64,000 nucleotides of DNA from NCBI GenBank assembly GCA_963759805.1, contig CAVXAT010000011.1:58816-122815 (forward strand), given 5' to 3'. Position numbers and translations under genes: made by a program. Positions 2,520 through 64,000 of this stretch are shown here, in pieces. Numbering within the stretch: the first letter of the stretch is position 1; each line of letters begins with the position of its first letter. The notes beneath the pieces are model-generated. The model was not told the origin of the DNA and ran no database searches. It was given only the letters and a program-made list of their open reading frames with translations. The DNA comes from an uncultured bacterium (GTDB lineage: Bacteria > Babelota > Babeliae > Babelales > RVW-14).

Positions 2520-4350
2520 TTATTTAATATCGCTTTTTACTTGCGCAATATGTTCTATAATCACGGCATCCCCCGGAGAAATTGTTAAGGCTTTTTCAAA
2601 TAACTCAAGAGCCTGTTCTTTTTTGCCCATTTTTGAAAGTACCAAACCCTTTGTATCAAGATAAAAAGGAGAGTTGGCATCGTCCAGCAACGCCTTATTA
2701 ACATAATCAAGCGCCTCGGGTAGATTTTGCCCCTGCTTTGCATAAGCGTATGCAAGTAAATTATAAGAGGCAGGATAAACAACAGGATGTTTTATTGACT
2801 GCAGAAGAATATTTTCCATATTTTTAGTTTGATTAGTTAAGAAATAGATATAGGCAACCTGATACAAAACCTTTGATTTTAAATCAAAATCCGGTACCGA
2901 ATCAAAAATCTTTTTATATAAAGCAATGCTGGTTTTGTAATTCTTCTGTTCGACACAAATATCTGCCAATGCGGCCCAAACTCCAACAGTGGCTCTGTTG
3001 GCCTTTAAAACATCTTCCAACAAACTTGCTATGGCAGATTTAGAAAAACCGGCCTGACTCAGCAACAAAATAGTATGTATGACAGAATTATCATATGGTT
3101 CGCGTTTTAACCAATCACCCATAAACGTCAAAATTTGATTATGATTCTTCATCGCAAGCAGTATCTCAACTTTTAACAGCTTGCCACGAATAAAATTTGG
3201 AGCCTTTTGAATACAGGTATTTATATGCTGCAATGCCTTTTTGTAATTTCCGGAATTAAATTCGATCATTGCCATATCAAAGAAATACTCCGGGGTGTCT
3301 CCTTTAAGTTTTTTAAGATACTTTAGAGCTTCAGGCATTCGATTTTGCGAAAACATAAGCTGAATTAACTGTTTCTCAATCATCTCATCACGCCCAACAA
3401 GAGTCAAGAAATGTTGATATCCCTTAATTGCTTCATTAATATTTCCAAGTTGCTCAAGAAGCATCGCTTTTAAAAGCAGCGCTTTATCAAATTTAGGAAA
3501 CATCTCAAGACTCTTCTCAATGTCACGCATAGCCAAATCGTTTTTACTCATGTGCATATGAACTTTTGAACGTAAAAAATAAAACAGGAAGGCTCTTGGC
3601 TTGAACATCGGCTTTTCCAAACACTCATTAAGATATGCCAAGCTTTTTTCAAGCTGATTATTTTTTATAAGAGACACGGCAAAGTAGTATGCCACCTGCT
3701 CATTATCCGGAAAGTCTTTTGCCAAATTTAAAAAGATTTTCTCAGCTTTTTCATCCTGGTTAGCCATTAAAAATGCCTGCGCTACCAAAAGATTAAATTC
3801 CAGATTTTTTTCGAAGAATTTTTTGAATTTGTCTTCGCTTTTTTGATAAATTTCAACAACCTTCAAAATTTGTCCGATATCAAATAAAAATCTAAAGTAT
3901 CCATCATAAACAAAGATCGGCGGATTCTTTGCAAAAAGTTTTTTATAAATCTGCATTGCCTGCTTGGCATCACCCTTGGAATGAAAATAATTTGCTTGAG
4001 ATGTAAAGATTATAAGTGGCTTCATCTGATTTTGAATTATTACCATCTAAATCTGCAGGCTGGTCATCTACAAAGGCAATTTTGCAACCACTGTCATCTT
4101 CTAGCTGAGTAGCTTTTGGTTTAGCAGATCTCTTCTGGCACTCGCATCCTTCGACAGGCTCCAGCCGTCGCTCTTGGAGAGCTATGGCCGGCACGGCAGG
4201 ACGAGCGCCTTTAAGTAGGCGCGCTCGTGGTGAGCTTGTCGAACCATCACCCATAGGTGACGCGCCAGAGTTCATCTGATCGGGCAAGACCACTCCAAAA
4301 ACTGTGCTTAAACAACTCAGAATAATCAACTTCCTAAACAAATTCTTCAT
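2520..4350 (-). CDS. Secreted tetratricopeptide-repeat protein, split by a one-base frameshift near 4000 and carrying an in-frame palindromic insertion
   Basis: ORF 3970-4350 has a signal peptide and overlaps the dciA stop (ATGA). ORF 2520-4046 has TPRs (YNLLAYAYA...YLDTKGLVL). Removing one base at TAC ATC T CAA GCA joins them. Confidence 0.75.
4125..4278. repeat. Palindromic element family A, copy within the TPR gene, with nested 36-nt hairpin at 4162-4197
   Basis: Shares CTCGCATCCTTCGACAGGCTC...GCGCTCGTGGTGAGCTTGTCGAACCATCACCC...GGTGACGCGC with the 13513 and 37438 copies; right boundary approximate. Confidence 0.9.
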
Positions 4351-6394: not shown

Positions 6395-6428
6395 TGTCAT
6401 GCTGAACTCGTTTCAGCATCCATGGATA
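6395..6428 (+). repeat. REP-like hairpin, family B, copy 2
   Basis: TGTCATGCTGAACTCGTTTCAGCATCCATGGATA immediately after the rarA stop. Confidence 0.9.
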
Positions 6429-6498
6429 AATTCATTCCACATTATTGCAATTAGGTAAACTGTCTAATTTAAATTTAAAAAACTGTAAGGCCAATTTT

Positions 6499-13512: not shown

Positions 13513-13677
13513 TAGATCTCTTCTGAAACTCGCATCCTTCGACAGGCTCCCAGCCTTCGCTTTGGGTAGCTTCGGCGGGCACGGCAGGATGAGCGCATCG
13601 GGGAGTCGCGCTCGTGGTGAGCTTGTCGAACCATCACCCATACCAATGGGTGACGCGCTGGGCCTCAGAAAATTTCA
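13513..13677. repeat. Palindromic element family A, intergenic copy, with nested 36-nt hairpin at 13550-13585
   Basis: TAGATCTCTTCTGAAACTCGCATCCTTCGACAGGCTC...GGTGAGCTTGTCGAACCATCACCC...GGGTGACGCGC. Confidence 0.9.
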
Positions 13678-14361
13678 TTTTACAAGTAAACCATCATGTA
13701 ATGTATAAACAACTTCCATTCTATTATAAACATCCGGGTCGTGTGAACAGATGATCACACCCATCCCCCATTCCTCTTTTGCCCGTAACATTAAATCTAC
13801 AACATTTTTTGCATTGTCAGAATCTAAATTTCCGGTTGGCTCATCGGCAAGTAAAAATAAAGGTCTGTTAAAAATTGCTCTGGCAATTGAAACCCTCTGC
13901 TGCTCCCCGCCTGAGAGCTCTCCTGGATAATTATTCTCTTTACCCATTAACCCCATGATTTGCAACAACTCAAATGCCCTAACCCGACATTTTTTACTGC
14001 GTTCGCCCTTGACCAGTCCAACCAACATAATGTTTTCAAGTACAGTTAATTCTTTGATTAAGTAGTGAAACTGAAAAACAAATCCCATTGTGTGACTTAA
14101 AAATTTTTCTTTTTCCGACTGTTTTAATTTATAAATATCTTTTGTATCAAACGTCACCAGCCCACTAGTTGGAGCATCCAATCCGCCTAAGATATGCATT
14201 AGGGTAGATTTTCCACTTCCCGAAACACCCTTAATTGCATAAGAGATCCCCTTGCAAAAGTCCACAGATATGCCTTTCAGGACATGGCTAAGTTTTTCGT
14301 CACTACCAAAATCTTTACAAACATTGGTTGCAATCAAGCGATCGGAAAATTGCCCAAGCAT
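13675..14361 (-). CDS. lolD: ABC transporter ATP-binding protein, LolD/MacB-like
   Basis: GVSGSGKST, GFVFQFHYL, LSGGEQQRVSIARA, LADEPTGNLD. Confidence 0.8.
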   Translation of the reverse strand: MLGQFSDRLIATNVCKDFGSDEKLSHVLKGISVDFCKGISYAIKGVSGSGKSTLMHILGGLDAPTSGLVTFDTKDIYKLKQSEKEKFLSHTMGFVFQFHYLIKELTVLENIMLVGLVKGERSKKCRVRAFELLQIMGLMGKENNYPGELSGGEQQRVSIARAIFNRPLFLLADEPTGNLDSDNAKNVVDLMLRAKEEWGMGVIICSHDPDVYNRMEVVYTLHDGLLVK

Positions 14362-36445: not shown

Positions 36446-37576
36446 CTAAGCATTAACCTGTGTTTTTATAACAAAATATCCACGCTCTTCAAAAAACGTT
36501 GCAACTTTTGATTGTAGATCAATCTCCGGCGTAAGTGCAAAAACCAACCCGCCACGCCCGGTGCCGGTAAGTTTTGCACCCAATGCGCCAAGCTCACAAG
36601 CTTTATCAGTAATCATATCAAGTTCAGGACAAGAAACCCCAAGTGCTTGTAATAATTTTTGGTTTTTATTCATGTACATGCCAAGTTTTTCTAAATTATT
36701 ATTTTCAAGCGCATCCAAGCCAAGAGAAAAAATATCTCTGTACTGTTCGAAAATTATTTTTGTTTTATCCGGATTTTTTTCAATAAAATCACGCACAGAT
36801 GATACAACTTGTTTGATATTCGTTTGCTTGCCACTATCGATAATGACAATTCTGATTGGATTGGAAATTTGAATTTTTGAATAAGAAAACGCAGGAGTAA
36901 AGAAGCCCGCTCGTGGTGAGTGCGCACCTTGTGCGCGTATCGAACCATCACCCGAAGGGTGACGGGCAGAATCTCTACAAAATTTTATTACCCCACCAAA
37001 AACAGCCGCAGTATTATCAATGCCACTGGGAGTGCCATGCACGGCAAATTCTCCCTCAAACGCCGCTTGATTAACCTCTTCATCGCCCAAATTAAGATTA
37101 AATTTAGAATTTACTGCACGGGCAAAAGATGCTGCAGCCGCCGCGCTTGAGCCAACCCCTCCGCAGGTTACGGGTAGTGTACCTGTAAAAGTCACGGTTA
37201 AATTTCTCTGTTTAATTCCCCAAAAATTCAGAATTTTTTCACACATGCATCTGTATTGCGTTGTTTTGCTGAGAACAAAACCTGGAGATTTTGGTCTGTT
37301 ATCAACTAAAACTAGACCGTTACAAGAATTATCTTGAATCTCAGCGTAAGTTTTTAAATTAAGTGATACAACAAGCGCAGGTAACCCATGTACAACAAAA
37401 TGCTCACCTAAAAGAATAATTTTCCCATATCCAAAATTAGATATTTTTTGAAACTCGCATCCTTCGACAGGCTCAGGACGAGCGCCATTAAGTAGGCGCG
37501 CTCGTGGTGAGCTTGTCGAACCATCACCCTTGGGTGACGCGCCGGATTTCAAAAGAAGTCTATCATCTAATTTCAT
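36446..37576 (-). CDS. mvk: Mevalonate kinase (GHMP) with two in-frame palindromic insertions
   Basis: GKIILLGEHFVVHG, GVGSSAA, HGTPSGID, GAKLTGTGRGG; last gene of the MVA operon. Confidence 0.92.
   Translation of the reverse strand: MKLDDRLLLKSGASPKGDGSTSSPRARLLNGARPEPVEGCEFQKISNFGYGKIILLGEHFVVHGLPALVVSLNLKTYAEIQDNSCNGLVLVDNRPKSPGFVLSKTTQYRCMCEKILNFWGIKQRNLTVTFTGTLPVTCGGVGSSAAAAASFARAVNSKFNLNLGDEEVNQAAFEGEFAVHGTPSGIDNTAAVFGGVIKFCRDSARHPSGDGSIRAQGAHSPRAGFFTPAFSYSKIQISNPIRIVIIDSGKQTNIKQVVSSVRDFIEKNPDKTKIIFEQYRDIFSLGLDALENNNLEKLGMYMNKNQKLLQALGVSCPELDMITDKACELGALGAKLTGTGRGGLVFALTPEIDLQSKVATFFEERGYFVIKTQVNA
36905..36967. repeat. Palindromic element family A, short 63-nt in-frame copy inside mvk
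   Basis: GCCCG-CTCGTGGTGAG-[TGCGCACCTTGTGCGCGTA]-TCGAACCATCACCCGAAGGGTGA-CGGGC. Confidence 0.85.
37438..37562. repeat. Palindromic element family A, full-length TA-flanked copy inserted in frame at the mvk N-terminus
   Basis: TAGATATTTTTTGAAA...TTTCAAAAGAAGTCTA imperfect inverted ends; 125 nt including both TA, 123 nt net. Confidence 0.92.
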
Positions 37577-37971
37577 AATACAGGCACAAATTTCAAACCA
37601 TACTCGATTATGCCATTTGCTCCATGTGAATAAAATTTTCGAAAAGTCGACTGCACTCTCATTCCAATCTTTAAATCCCCAAGCCCAACATCTGCAAGAG
37701 CCACTGTAATTTGTGGACCCTCATCCAGCAGCACAAGACCAATGCAGTAAACTGGCATATGCTTAAATTCCATACAAGAACTAGTGATATTAGTAAATGA
37801 AATCAATTTTCCAAATCCACTAAATTTAAAAGTCTTGAAATCTCTGGATCCACACGAACATAAAAAGCTTTTTAAGTAATAATTTTTTCCACAAATTGCA
37901 CATTGGGTTCCATCAAGGCTATATCGCTTGGAGTACTGTCTCCATCCAGGAATTGAACTTGAACTAAACAC
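37573..37971 (-). CDS. DUF35 family Zn-ribbon/OB-fold protein (thiolase/HMGS scaffold)
   Basis: GTQCAICG...CSCGS, GKLISFT, IGLVLLDEGPQI, IGMRVQSTFRK, IEYGLKFVP. Confidence 0.9.
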   Translation of the reverse strand: MFSSSSIPGWRQYSKRYSLDGTQCAICGKNYYLKSFLCSCGSRDFKTFKFSGFGKLISFTNITSSCMEFKHMPVYCIGLVLLDEGPQITVALADVGLGDLKIGMRVQSTFRKFYSHGANGIIEYGLKFVPVL

Positions 37972-37980
37972 TCATTCTCC

Positions 37981-39135
37981 TCATTCTCGTTCAAAAATGT
38001 GAACAACTGCGGTGGTTCCAATTCCACCAATATTGTGAGTGAGGCCATATCTGGCATTTTTTACCTGATGCTGACCGCATCTTCCCAATAACTGATTTAC
38101 AATTTCAGTTACTTGTGAGATACCGCTGGCGCCAACGGGGTGCCCTTTTGCTTTAAGCCCACCTGAGGTGTTGACAGGTAAATCACCGCCAATCTGAGTC
38201 TTTCCTAAAGCGGTTTCAAACCCAGCCTTCCCTTTTCCAAAAAAACCAAGATCTTCAAGCGCAATTATTTCCGCCATGCTAAATGCATCATGAACCTCTG
38301 CAACATTTATGTCGCGATGGGTAATCCCAGCCATTTCAAAAGCTTTTTTACCGGCTACTCTTGTCGCTTTAAAACTTGTTATTTCTTCGCGGCTTGCAAG
38401 ATCTAATGTATCAGTAGCTTGCGCGCTAGCAATTACATTAATCCCATTTTTTTTATATTTTTTTGCAAAATCATAACTTGAAATTATAACTGCTGCAGCT
38501 CCATCGCTAATTGGCGCACAATCAAGTAATCGCAACGGATCGGCAACAACAGGAGATTTAAAGTAGTCATCCAGCGTCATTTTTTTGCTAAATTGAGCCA
38601 ACGGATTTAACACTGCATTGTTATGATTCTTAATACTGACAGCAGCAAGTTCTTGATTTGTAAGACCATATTTTTGCATATAAAGACGTGTAACCATGGC
38701 AAAAAGTCCTGGAAATGTTGCTCCTGCAAAATGTTCTGACTGATAATCTCCCGCTCCCATCAAAGCAGATGTTGCCTGTGATATGGCAACATCACTCATT
38801 TTTTCAACACCAATTACCATAACAACATTGACAGCACCTGAAAGTATTGCTTGAATCCCGCATGCAAGAGCCGAGCTTCCAGATGCACAAGCATTCTCCA
38901 CTCTTGTACTAGGCACTGTAATTCCAAGTTGCTGTGCAGCAATTGCACCCAAATGTGCCTGTCCGTTAAATTGTTGAGCCAGCATGTTGCCAACGAAAAT
39001 TGCACCTATCTGGGCAGGTGAAATTGCGGCATCATCAAGAGCATCAAACTGAGCTTGCGCAATTAAATCATGCAGCCCCTTATCCCACAACTCTGCAAAC
39101 TTTGTACATCCAACGCCAAGCACTGAAATCTTCAC
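37981..39135 (-). CDS. Archaeal-type acetoacetyl-CoA thiolase (SCP2-like motifs)
   Basis: ENACASGS, GVEKMSD, EVHDAFS, KGHPVGASG, HNIGG; GTG start after CAGGA. Confidence 0.92.
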   Translation of the reverse strand: MKISVLGVGCTKFAELWDKGLHDLIAQAQFDALDDAAISPAQIGAIFVGNMLAQQFNGQAHLGAIAAQQLGITVPSTRVENACASGSSALACGIQAILSGAVNVVMVIGVEKMSDVAISQATSALMGAGDYQSEHFAGATFPGLFAMVTRLYMQKYGLTNQELAAVSIKNHNNAVLNPLAQFSKKMTLDDYFKSPVVADPLRLLDCAPISDGAAAVIISSYDFAKKYKKNGINVIASAQATDTLDLASREEITSFKATRVAGKKAFEMAGITHRDINVAEVHDAFSMAEIIALEDLGFFGKGKAGFETALGKTQIGGDLPVNTSGGLKAKGHPVGASGISQVTEIVNQLLGRCGQHQVKNARYGLTHNIGGIGTTAVVHIFERE

Positions 39136-39148
39136 TTCACATCCTGCT

Positions 39149-40219
39149 TCACTTCGCATCCTGATAAAGTAAGTCAATATTTCTTCGATATTCAGAGTAT
39201 GTTAAATATTTTTTGCAATCCAAATGACTTTTCAAATTAGTTATATTATTTGATAATTTATTAACTACTCTTTTTATATTTTTAGTAGTTTTTAAAATAA
39301 AAGCATCACAACCGCTCCCACTTCCATAGCTAACAAGTAATATTCTTTGGTCGGGCTGCGCTTGATCAAGAACGGCACACAACCCCAATAAAGAACTGGC
39401 ACTGTAAGTGTTACCAATTTGCTGAGCAACTAGCCCCGGATTGATCTGTTCCGTATTAAACCCTAAACTTTTTGCAGCTATTAACGGAAGTTTGCCGTTA
39501 GGTTGATGCAAAACAACGTAGTCAAATGAATCCGGACCACAGGAATGTTTAGTAAAAATTTTTTTCACGATTGCGCTAATATGTTTTAAATATGCCGGTT
39601 CTGAGGTAAAACGTCCTGAATGTTCAGGATATTTTTGCATGCTACGCCGCCAAAAATCAGGCGTATCGGATGCAATTGAAATCGTATCTTCAATATTCGC
39701 GATGATTTTTGATTCATCTGATCCGATAATAAACGCGGCAGCTCCCGCTCCGGCGCTATACTCAAGAATGTCCCCGGGAGCAGCTTGGGCGGTATCAGTC
39801 CCAATGGCCATCCCCAACTTTGCAAAACCGGATTTTACCAATCCAAGACAAACGCCCAACGCGGCCGTTCCCGCCTTGCATGCAAATTCCATATCGGCAG
39901 CCATACAAAAGGCATTGGCCCCAATTGCTTGTCCAACAATTGTTGCAGTTGGTTTTACGGCATATGGCGCACTTTCACTTCCAACATAAATTGCATTAAT
40001 ATCATTGGGATTCACACCACTTTGTAAAAGGCCATTATTTGCAGCATTAACAGCAAAAGTAACGGAATCCTCATCAATACCCGGAACGGATTTTTCTTCA
40101 ATTAAAAGACTGGATTTAATTTGATTAAGATTTTGTTGCCAAGCTTTGGCAATCTCTTCACACTTTATTCGGTAAACCGGAATATAGAACCCATACCCGA
40201 CAATTCCAACATTCATCAT
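39149..40219 (-). CDS. Archaeal-type hydroxymethylglutaryl-CoA synthase
   Basis: GSESAPYAVKP, MEFACKAGT, HQPNGK, GNTYSAS, VSYGSGSGCDAF. Confidence 0.93.
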   Translation of the reverse strand: MMNVGIVGYGFYIPVYRIKCEEIAKAWQQNLNQIKSSLLIEEKSVPGIDEDSVTFAVNAANNGLLQSGVNPNDINAIYVGSESAPYAVKPTATIVGQAIGANAFCMAADMEFACKAGTAALGVCLGLVKSGFAKLGMAIGTDTAQAAPGDILEYSAGAGAAAFIIGSDESKIIANIEDTISIASDTPDFWRRSMQKYPEHSGRFTSEPAYLKHISAIVKKIFTKHSCGPDSFDYVVLHQPNGKLPLIAAKSLGFNTEQINPGLVAQQIGNTYSASSLLGLCAVLDQAQPDQRILLVSYGSGSGCDAFILKTTKNIKRVVNKLSNNITNLKSHLDCKKYLTYSEYRRNIDLLYQDAK

Positions 40220-40229
40220 CAACTCTTAC

Positions 40230-40274
40230 TGTCATCCTGAATTTATTTCAGGATCCATGGATTAATAAGTTCCT
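40230..40274 (+). repeat. REP-like hairpin, family B, copy 3
   Basis: TGTCATCCTGAATTTATTTCAGGATCCATGGATTAATAA. Confidence 0.9.
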
Positions 40275-40329
40275 CTGGATACACTCCTGCACCACTCGAG
40301 AAGTAAGTCTACCACCTTTTATCATCTAT

Positions 40330-41505
40330 TCAATCTATTAAATTTCGTAAGTGCAATTTCATATGTCCCTTCTGAATTCCTTCCCCAACAAGGGCTTTAA
40401 GCGCTGCAAAATTTTGAGCCAGCCCAACGCTTGCAATAATTTGAGCAAGTTCTGATGCAGATTTAACATCAAGAATTTTCAAACAAAGCCTGGCAAAAGG
40501 ATTACTCTTTGTAGCACCCCCAACAGTACCAAGTGCAAGCGGAATTTCAATTGCCCCAATCAGGTTTTCCTGCTCATCCTTTGAATATTCTGTTAAGGGT
40601 TTATAAGAATTATTTATGGCAGCATACCCATGAACGCCCGCCTCAACAGCGCGAAAATCATTGCCTGTTGCCAAACAGACGGCATCAATTCCATTCATAA
40701 TCCCTTTATTATGGGTGACAGCTCGAAAGATATCGATTTTTGCAATCTCATTTGCCTGAATAATTTTGTCTATCAAATCAGATCCAATTTCTTCTTTCGA
40801 CCAAATGGCTTGAGCTTTTACGATTCTGTTAACAGCCAGATTTGACAATATTTTTAACAACACGGTGCCGCCTGTTAATTTTTCTATAACAGGTGCTACT
40901 GCCTCACACATCGTGTTAACAGTATTTGCCCCCATTGCATCTTTGACATCAACTAGAAGATGTACAACTAAAATTTTTCCCAATGCCCCAAATATCCCAG
41001 TGGATAAAGCCTCAATTTCTCGAATATTTAAATCAAAAGCACCCCCACCCAATGTTATAAGCACAGGATCTTGAGAATTTGCCAGTTCAAGAATCTCTGC
41101 TTTGCACTCTTCTATTTTTATTTTTGCTTGCAAAACATCCACAATATCTAAAATATGCACCTGTCCAATCATCACAGATCTACTGGCAGTTGCAGTAAAG
41201 CCACCGTAGGATCTAGCCAATTTTGCAGCATTGCTTGCTGCAGCAATCACACTAGCCTCTTCTGTTGCCATAGGAATCAGGTAATCTATACCGTTAATTA
41301 TAAAATTTGCAGCAAGCCCAAGTGGCATGGGAAAAACAGAAATCATATTTTCAATCATCTGTTCGGCAAAGCCAACCCCCAAATTATCTTTTAAATTCAG
41401 CAACAAAATATCTTGCTCTGAAAGATTCGCAAACTCTTTTAATAAATTAAGCCGCTCAAGGCGGCTTAATTTGTAAAACTCTTTTATTCTGCTGTTTTTT
41501 TTCAT
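40330..41505 (-). CDS. mvaA: Class II HMG-CoA reductase
   Basis: IENMIS, ATEEASVIAA, DAMGANTVNT, THNKGIMNG, GNDFRAVEAG, EGIQKGHMKLH. Confidence 0.95.
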   Translation of the reverse strand: MKKNSRIKEFYKLSRLERLNLLKEFANLSEQDILLLNLKDNLGVGFAEQMIENMISVFPMPLGLAANFIINGIDYLIPMATEEASVIAAASNAAKLARSYGGFTATASRSVMIGQVHILDIVDVLQAKIKIEECKAEILELANSQDPVLITLGGGAFDLNIREIEALSTGIFGALGKILVVHLLVDVKDAMGANTVNTMCEAVAPVIEKLTGGTVLLKILSNLAVNRIVKAQAIWSKEEIGSDLIDKIIQANEIAKIDIFRAVTHNKGIMNGIDAVCLATGNDFRAVEAGVHGYAAINNSYKPLTEYSKDEQENLIGAIEIPLALGTVGGATKSNPFARLCLKILDVKSASELAQIIASVGLAQNFAALKALVGEGIQKGHMKLHLRNLID

Positions 41506-63867: not shown

Positions 63868-63931
63868 GTAACCCAATTCGACAGCTCAGGAAAAGGACTA
63901 AGGTATCGAAAGCGTCTTCCAATCAAAGATT

Positions 63932-63978
63932 TGTCATCCTGAACTTGATTCAGGATCCATGGATTAATAAACTTCCCT
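63932..63978 (+). repeat. REP-like hairpin, family B, copy 4
   Basis: TGTCATCCTGAACTTGATTCAGGATCCATGGATTAATAA. Confidence 0.9.
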
Positions 63979-64000
63979 GTTTTTGATTATTTAATCTTTT

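Follow-up and report, generated by a model that had tools for sequence, protein, structure and literature searches.

A mevalonate kinase gene of the Babeliales with two in-frame insertions related to a palindromic repeat with IS5-type ends

The mevalonate kinase (MVK) gene in the window (the whole analysed stretch of 64,000 nucleotides from an uncultured member of the Babeliales) has two insertions, both of which are probably in-frame copies of a multi-copy repeat with IS5-type ends, likely inserted by an IS5-family (ISL2-like) transposase acting in trans at a 3-bp AAT/ATT target. The repeat ends, the duplication of 3 bp, the sites that are empty or shorter in relatives, and the bias towards lengths preserving the reading frame are seen directly. 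Protein-coding palindromes of Rickettsia (RPEs) have been known since 2000; what is added here is the shared ends, the 3-bp target and a candidate transposase. RPEs, intragenic REPs and an active RPE-bearing guanylate kinase are established, judging from the available text of PMC10969869, PMC3733652, PMC3184786, PMC2229807, PMC9769881, PMC1779305 and PMC11602168, and double insertions in one open reading frame have been described for the REPs of R. conorii and O. terrae (available part of PMC3733652). The available parts of these seven papers and of PMC3196728 name no transposase for RPE. The literature search, with the primary RPE papers, ISfinder and supplements outside its scope, yielded no paper linking RPE to IS5/ISL2 and none on these Babeliales repeats; such work may be in print.

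The MVK gene (36446..37576, minus strand) encodes 376 amino acids and scores above the TIGR00549 cut-off in a profile search (201 bits vs 163). Its frame is open across both inserts, and the two separate in-frame insertions reported in the initial annotation are both present in the sequence. MVK is the last gene of an operon (36446–41505, minus strand) that includes the thiolase/OB-fold/HMG-CoA synthase trio: it is preceded by the OB-fold (DUF35-type) gene (37573..37971) and, at 37981..41505, by the genes for thiolase, HMG-CoA synthase and HMG-CoA reductase, as identified from translations and homologs. By the labels of homologs, the genome belongs to the Babeliales (Dependentiae/TM6); many of the MVK homologs are labelled archaeal. 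The AlphaFold2 model built on an alignment of 119 sequences has a confident GHMP fold, with pLDDT of at least 90 at 291 residues, and the closest fold is that of L. major MVK (2hfu, rmsd 2.0), Leishmania being the source of the nearest solved structure. A single-sequence model (pLDDT 31) was set aside, and the alignment-based one was used instead.

Insert 1, the element proper, is 123 nt long (37439..37561, minus strand), encodes residues 6–46 and has a GC-rich hairpin core enclosed by RPE-1/IS5-type ends that form an imperfect inverted repeat; the inverted ends had been correctly described, for 37438–37562. It is flanked by GAT upstream (37562..37564, minus strand, Asp5), one change from AAT, and by AAT downstream (37436..37438, minus strand, Asn47), which we interpret as the two copies of a 3-bp target duplication. 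The proposed excision of 123 nt holds for the element, whereas the event as a whole adds 126 nt and its removal leaves MKLDNFG, not MKLDDNFG. The net gain relative to the nearest relatives is only 108 nt, because these keep five extra codons at this site. The insert folds far better than its shuffled versions (z = −5.5, none of 200 shuffles as good), and its sequence differs from that of every other copy in the genome, which makes an assembly artefact at site 1 less likely, as does the recurrence of site 2 in three other proteins. None of the screened sequencing runs had more than 0.08 of the words, and no RNA run was listed.

Insert 2 (36905..36967, minus strand) lies between strands 196–201 and 230–235. 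Its 63 nt encode residues 204–224 exactly as quoted earlier, but they form only the inner palindrome of an eroded copy rather than a whole element: the outer ends have eroded, with no recognisable intact end and no duplication left. The net gain relative to the relative G003 is 63 nt, and the folding signal is weaker (z = −2.4, 3 of 200 shuffles as good). Structure prediction, proposed as a check on the placement of the inserts, puts insert 1 in a disordered N-terminal arm and insert 2 in a loop between two strands, both at low pLDDT (36–49 and 48–64, respectively, vs at least 90 in the core). MVK is predicted to fold normally, with the two additions disordered and conferring no new function.

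The duplicated target is not TA, as had been suggested, but the 3-bp sequence AAT/ATT (AWT), insert 1 having one mismatch. The 3-mers on the two sides are the same in 62 of 78 RPE-1-type copies (mean of 32 in shuffled sets, 0/2000), in 15/23 metagenome elements (8.7 in shuffled sets, 6/2000), in 11/12 young Babeliales copies and in 7/13 copies of this genome and the relative G002. Conversely, 2-mers agree in only 7/78 copies vs 18.5 in shuffled ones, and direct 3-mer pairs are much more frequent than complementary pairs, so a TA duplication was rejected; the TA seen around insert 1 is the last base of the duplication followed by the first base of the element. In Sarmatiella, direct alignment of an insertion sequence (IS) with and without an inserted copy demonstrates duplication of AAT (the automatic search for filled and empty sites found none); the same alignment contains a further, nested insertion that is not clean. 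Among full-length IS, the 3-bp duplication is exact in only two of seven.

The MVK insertion alone is ordinary for this genome. Starting from twelve seed copies, BLAST identified 76 loci with some module of the repeat, of which 43 with shell or core were retained by hand; the other 33, having other hairpins only, were left out of the family count. The copies are modular, 99–219 nt long. Twenty-seven are in frame in open genes, one breaks the frame of an ABC-F gene, one extends a C-terminus and 14 are non-coding. The related copies noted earlier at 4125 and 13513 are among them, the former (4125..4285, minus strand) in frame in a TPR-repeat gene, the latter (13513..13680, minus strand) directly following the upstream gene's stop codon and with a left end identical to the family consensus. 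Thus, the suggestion of a non-autonomous multi-copy palindromic element sitting in frame in genes is borne out on the genome scale. Short, multi-copy, with terminal inverted repeats and no transposase in its copies, the family has these properties of MITEs. The host genes, named from G003 orthologs, include those for AlaRS, MnmA, TruA, UvrC, PRPP synthase, transketolase, iPGM, UDG, PgeF, a MiaB-type enzyme, TamB and a DprA-type protein (C1:344894); one more copy is in a NurA-domain gene (C2:96518). The Rfam search gave no match within the window, and a 25-base family-specific pattern had none in metagenome contigs; viral contigs gave two uninformative hits.

Filled and empty sites were compared with 1.43 Mb of the roughly 1.5 Mb of G003, where both flanks could be paired for 33 of the 43 loci. 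The net length is a multiple of three at 23 of 24 coding sites vs one of eight non-coding sites (p = 1.8e-5 in a Fisher test that excluded the C-terminal case), as anticipated in the initial annotation. Since gene-breaking insertions are purged, this bias demonstrates selection, not design. Most junctions are unclean, the net gain relative to G003 being usually smaller than the element. Four family sites are common to G002 and empty in G003; the G002 comparison covered only 379 kb, chosen around the copies of G002 itself.

Several further features of the repeats were observed. Many non-coding copies begin right at the upstream stop codon (window 13513, C17:762, C21:6752, C2:53752, C4:23719). 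A different hairpin family, with about 28 copies of its core genome-wide, is present in the window at 1182–1242, 6395–6442, 40230–40277 and 63906–63979, and hairpins of this type also bracket a GIY-YIG gene in L384. The window starts with a 15-bp tandem repeat (2–149). Outside the window, the phosphomevalonate kinase gene has a 54-aa in-frame insertion (C11:41428-41543) that belongs to a second palindromic family, whose ends are different; the two kinases of the mevalonate pathway together have three inserts.

The likeness to RPE ends, proposed in the initial annotation, stands up to comparison of the termini. The family consensus end agrees with the RPE-1 end at 14 of 17 bases (12–14 for the ends of insert 1 itself), and a 21-base end pattern retrieved 146-bp, TIGR01045-positive Rickettsia elements. 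This pattern occurs in at least 128 stretches in GTDB genomes; among the matches listed, 80 of them named, most are from Rickettsia, Tisiphia, Sarmatiella, Legionellales, Parachlamydiaceae and Chthoniobacterales, and 146 bp is the commonest element length. Membership of RPE-1 itself is another matter: the interiors are unrelated (9/9 local comparisons within the shuffle range), and MVK does not match TIGR01045, the RPE1 model, in a search where three of three Rickettsia proteins passed and three from other taxa fell short of E 1e-8. The model found nothing in this genome either, in a search where the controls were also silent. RPE-1 (Ogata et al. 2000, 2002, as summarised in the available text of PMC10969869, PMC2229807 and PMC3733652) resembles the Babeliales family in its class of ends, the 3-bp duplication as measured here, a similar size and a long stem-loop, and also in its in-frame location in housekeeping genes with empty orthologs and its one preferred frame. 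In contrast, it has a fixed length of 144 nt and is found in Rickettsia, whereas the Babeliales family is modular, has an unrelated interior and belongs to another phylum. Hence, judged by sequence, the Babeliales element shares the ends and the habit of RPE-1 yet is not RPE-1. In the available part of PMC2229807, the target duplication of RPE is marked with a question mark, and no mobilising enzyme is named.

A candidate for such an enzyme emerged from a metagenome scan with a variant end derived from G002 copies. The 128 loci examined yielded 54 distinct elements with both ends, and nine of these were 900–1220 bp long with a two-frame transposase. Pfam domains HTH_Tnp_4 or DDE_Tnp_4 (PF13613/PF13359) were found in seven of the nine; the eighth has the same frames and the ninth is its near-copy. 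One element of 2 kb has an IS630-type domain instead. The size and the two-frame layout given in the available text of PMC3196728 for ISCaa2/3 of Amoebophilus, from the ISL2 group, fit the nine elements; no direct repeat is listed there for ISCaa2/3. The family consensus end agrees at 15 of 17 bases with that of an IS5 remnant in genome G005 of the same bacterial family, and at 14 of 17 with the Sarmatiella IS end; the ends of insert 1 itself agree with these at 12–14. Of the 206,079 TA-started 17-mers in this genome, 9 agree with the G005 end at 14 or more bases. Sarmatiella has 45 matches to this transposase, and the ends of a 953-bp IS in it match the RPE-1-like ends without a mismatch for 18–19 bases. 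The IS5 transposase genes of Sarmatiella themselves contain RPE-1-like copies and another small element (L400:1292-1437, L159). In the bacterial family of this genome, the end motif is present in 13 of 35 genomes (52 matches vs one in reversed controls) and transposase remnants in 3 of 24; remnants are named in G004, G005, G007 and G014. Protein, tblastx and PF13359 searches of this genome, which is 88.7% complete, and its multi-copy ORFs yielded no transposase of this type, and none was found in G001–G003, G008, or the tested Rickettsia and Parachlamydiaceae genomes with RPE-1-type copies. Thus, the family shares with the ISL2-like group of IS5 and its MITEs the ends, the A(A/T)T flanks and the transposase remnants in related shells, and differs from it in that the copies here have no transposase; the partner IS was assigned to this group by its size, two-frame layout and Pfam domains, not by ISfinder comparison. 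RUP, a MITE from IS630-Spn1, is different, since it duplicates TA and is non-coding according to the available text of PMC2229807.

We suggest the following scenario. The shell would be an IS5 derivative that lost its transposase (a MITE) and may have captured GC-rich hairpins of the kind that bracket GIY-YIG nuclease genes. A copy whose length is a multiple of three, together with a 3-bp duplication, would keep the frame when it lands in phase on an Asn or Ile codon, and copies at the N-terminus or in a surface loop would survive selection. Later, the ends would erode, and hairpin modules would be gained, lost or rewritten in multiples of three.

The MVK orthologs show filled, trimmed and empty sites. 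We aligned the kinases of 14 relatives (one with an incomplete N-terminus) and the 19 closest homologs, and none of them has the full insert 1; G001, G002 and G003 are among those without it as such. The initial annotation had reasoned that the same extra residues might occur in orthologs free of the repeat; relatives without the repeat lack these residues. At site 1, the basal kinases start with M-x-x-x-NFG or similar, and six close kinases have 6–24 residues between an MKLD-like start and NFG, beginning with Asn in four of the six. The Asn-five residues-Asn arrangement of G002 could represent a remnant enclosed by the two duplicated codons. In four proteins (MVK and three others) site 2 is filled, with three different lengths, always in frame, once with a different inner module; G002 has a 51-nt variant. 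It is empty in G001, G003 and P0005. Of 166 genes, 154 place G002 and G003 as sisters, and the grouping of the site-2-filled kinases into a single clade is rejected (p-AU 0.0016); hence site 2 was either precisely lost at least once or gained twice. Elsewhere in these alignments, hairpin-like peptides are seen in kinases P0011, P0002/L002 and L003, either at a third internal position (41 aa) or added by read-through at the C-terminus, and G003 has short in-frame leftovers (C12:24535-24570; L239:12520) at positions where a copy is present, or apparently once was, in relatives.

Inserts 1 and 2 share exact matches of 12–18 bases with hairpins bracketing the GIY-YIG genes of this genome, which has five stand-alone GIY-YIG matches besides UvrC. 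In other Babeliales, eight of 13 shells contain a GIY-YIG gene or its fragment, and one G014 shell contains a C-terminal transposase remnant. The genome G016 has a 639-bp composite (L412:498-1136) that combines IS5-type ends and an ATT duplication with hairpins and a complete GIY-YIG gene; G014, G015 and G002 have shorter derivatives of it. The modules resemble REP/BIME/REPIN elements (intragenic GTAG/CGTC REPs, available text of PMC3733652), which likewise are GC-rich hairpins that nest, pair and lie in frame in genes. REP/REPIN are associated with RAYT genes, whereas the Babeliales modules bracket GIY-YIG genes and lie within IS-type ends, GIY-YIG being the only association considered here.

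Plain transposition followed by decay does not explain how the copies diverge, and this counts against the IS5 model. Across 18 main-subfamily copies, deviations from the consensus affect 26% of positions in the 14 terminal bases (42% at the other end) and 0.5% in the 22 bases next to them; these copies were found by their cores, which itself biases the comparison this way. Between this genome and G002, the uvrC copy is 94% identical and its flanks about 82%, and at one common site the two genomes have different subfamily interiors. We take this as a sign that cores may be rewritten from other copies, and have no explanation for it. Allele exchange between the two genomes at the common sites was considered and rejected, as the flanks follow the species tree. 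An alternative is that hairpin cores move alone, by GIY-YIG/REP-type cut-and-copy or gene conversion, into old shells or end-like sites, IS5 having made at most the original shells and not the present MVK copies. It would account for nearly invariant cores within eroding ends, for the different interiors at one site, and for the scatter of filled site 2 on the kinase tree, with the ancestral-length loop in G003, the sister of G002; it also agrees with the presence of stand-alone GIY-YIG genes and the absence of an IS5 of this type in this genome. However, unrelated sites do contain whole shells whose ends are intact and whose 3-bp duplications are exact, and the flanks of common sites show no trace of exchange. 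We know of no way in which a GIY-YIG nuclease would produce a 3-bp duplication. Thus we consider movement of the cores alone unlikely, and retain insertion of whole copies by an IS5-type transposase as the preferred reading.

It is considerably less probable still that the gene is decaying or that the inserts are outside the working protein, as in a pseudogene, with an internal start or by hairpin skipping. In favour of decay, one family copy does break its frame: the ABC-F ATPase copy (C1:255731-255915) shifts it by a net 106 nt. That gene has lost its C-terminal part and still has dN/dS of 0.047. The dN/dS of MVK relative to G003 is 0.15, at the upper quartile of the genome (median 0.09, 572 genes); even so, its frame is open over 376 codons, and the constraint on 21 tested host genes is no different from the rest of the genome (p = 0.27). 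The stop codon of the OB-fold gene overlaps the MVK ATG, and therefore the MVK start is fixed upstream of insert 1; the overlap recurs in the DNA of G001–G003. The sole further start-like codon among the first 60 is TTG at codon 9, which is inside the element, so that most of insert 1 would still be read. The initial annotation had allowed for translation starting downstream of the element, and no ATG, GTG or TTG lies between insert 1 and the first conserved motif. Moreover, MVK is the only mevalonate kinase among three GHMP matches, a search for IspG in four genomes of the genus found none, and all three lengths seen at site 2 keep the frame.

Recruitment of the inserts for a function, such as kinase regulation, mRNA structure or partner binding, is the least plausible explanation, since, for all that site 2 is filled in four related proteins and copies tend to be oriented along transcription (32 vs 9 against, and 10 vs 2 outside genes, by hand count, a bias that is unexplained), length and sequence vary freely at both sites, site 2 is missing from two nested relatives, some 25 unrelated proteins contain the same peptide, and RPE-1 in guanylate kinase was neutral or slightly harmful, as summarised in the available text of PMC2229807. 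The best reading is that the inserts are probably tolerated in floppy loops.

A broader generalisation, to which we give somewhat less than an even chance, is that RPE-1 and its look-alikes in the Babeliales, Chlamydiae, Legionellales and Verrucomicrobia form one superfamily of IS5 (ISL2-like) MITEs, in frame because of the 3-bp AWT target, and that in the Babeliales a GIY-YIG-linked hairpin system rewrites the cores, the two tiers together writing, editing and erasing protein loops. A transposase family with a 3-bp target would explain the in-frame habit of such repeats without any special mechanism, and the IS5-type ends likely name the enzyme that moves them into genes. The observations extend protein-coding palindromes to a distant phylum of host-associated bacteria, and in the MVK family the graded series of filled, trimmed and empty sites provides a record of inserts leaving short new loops.
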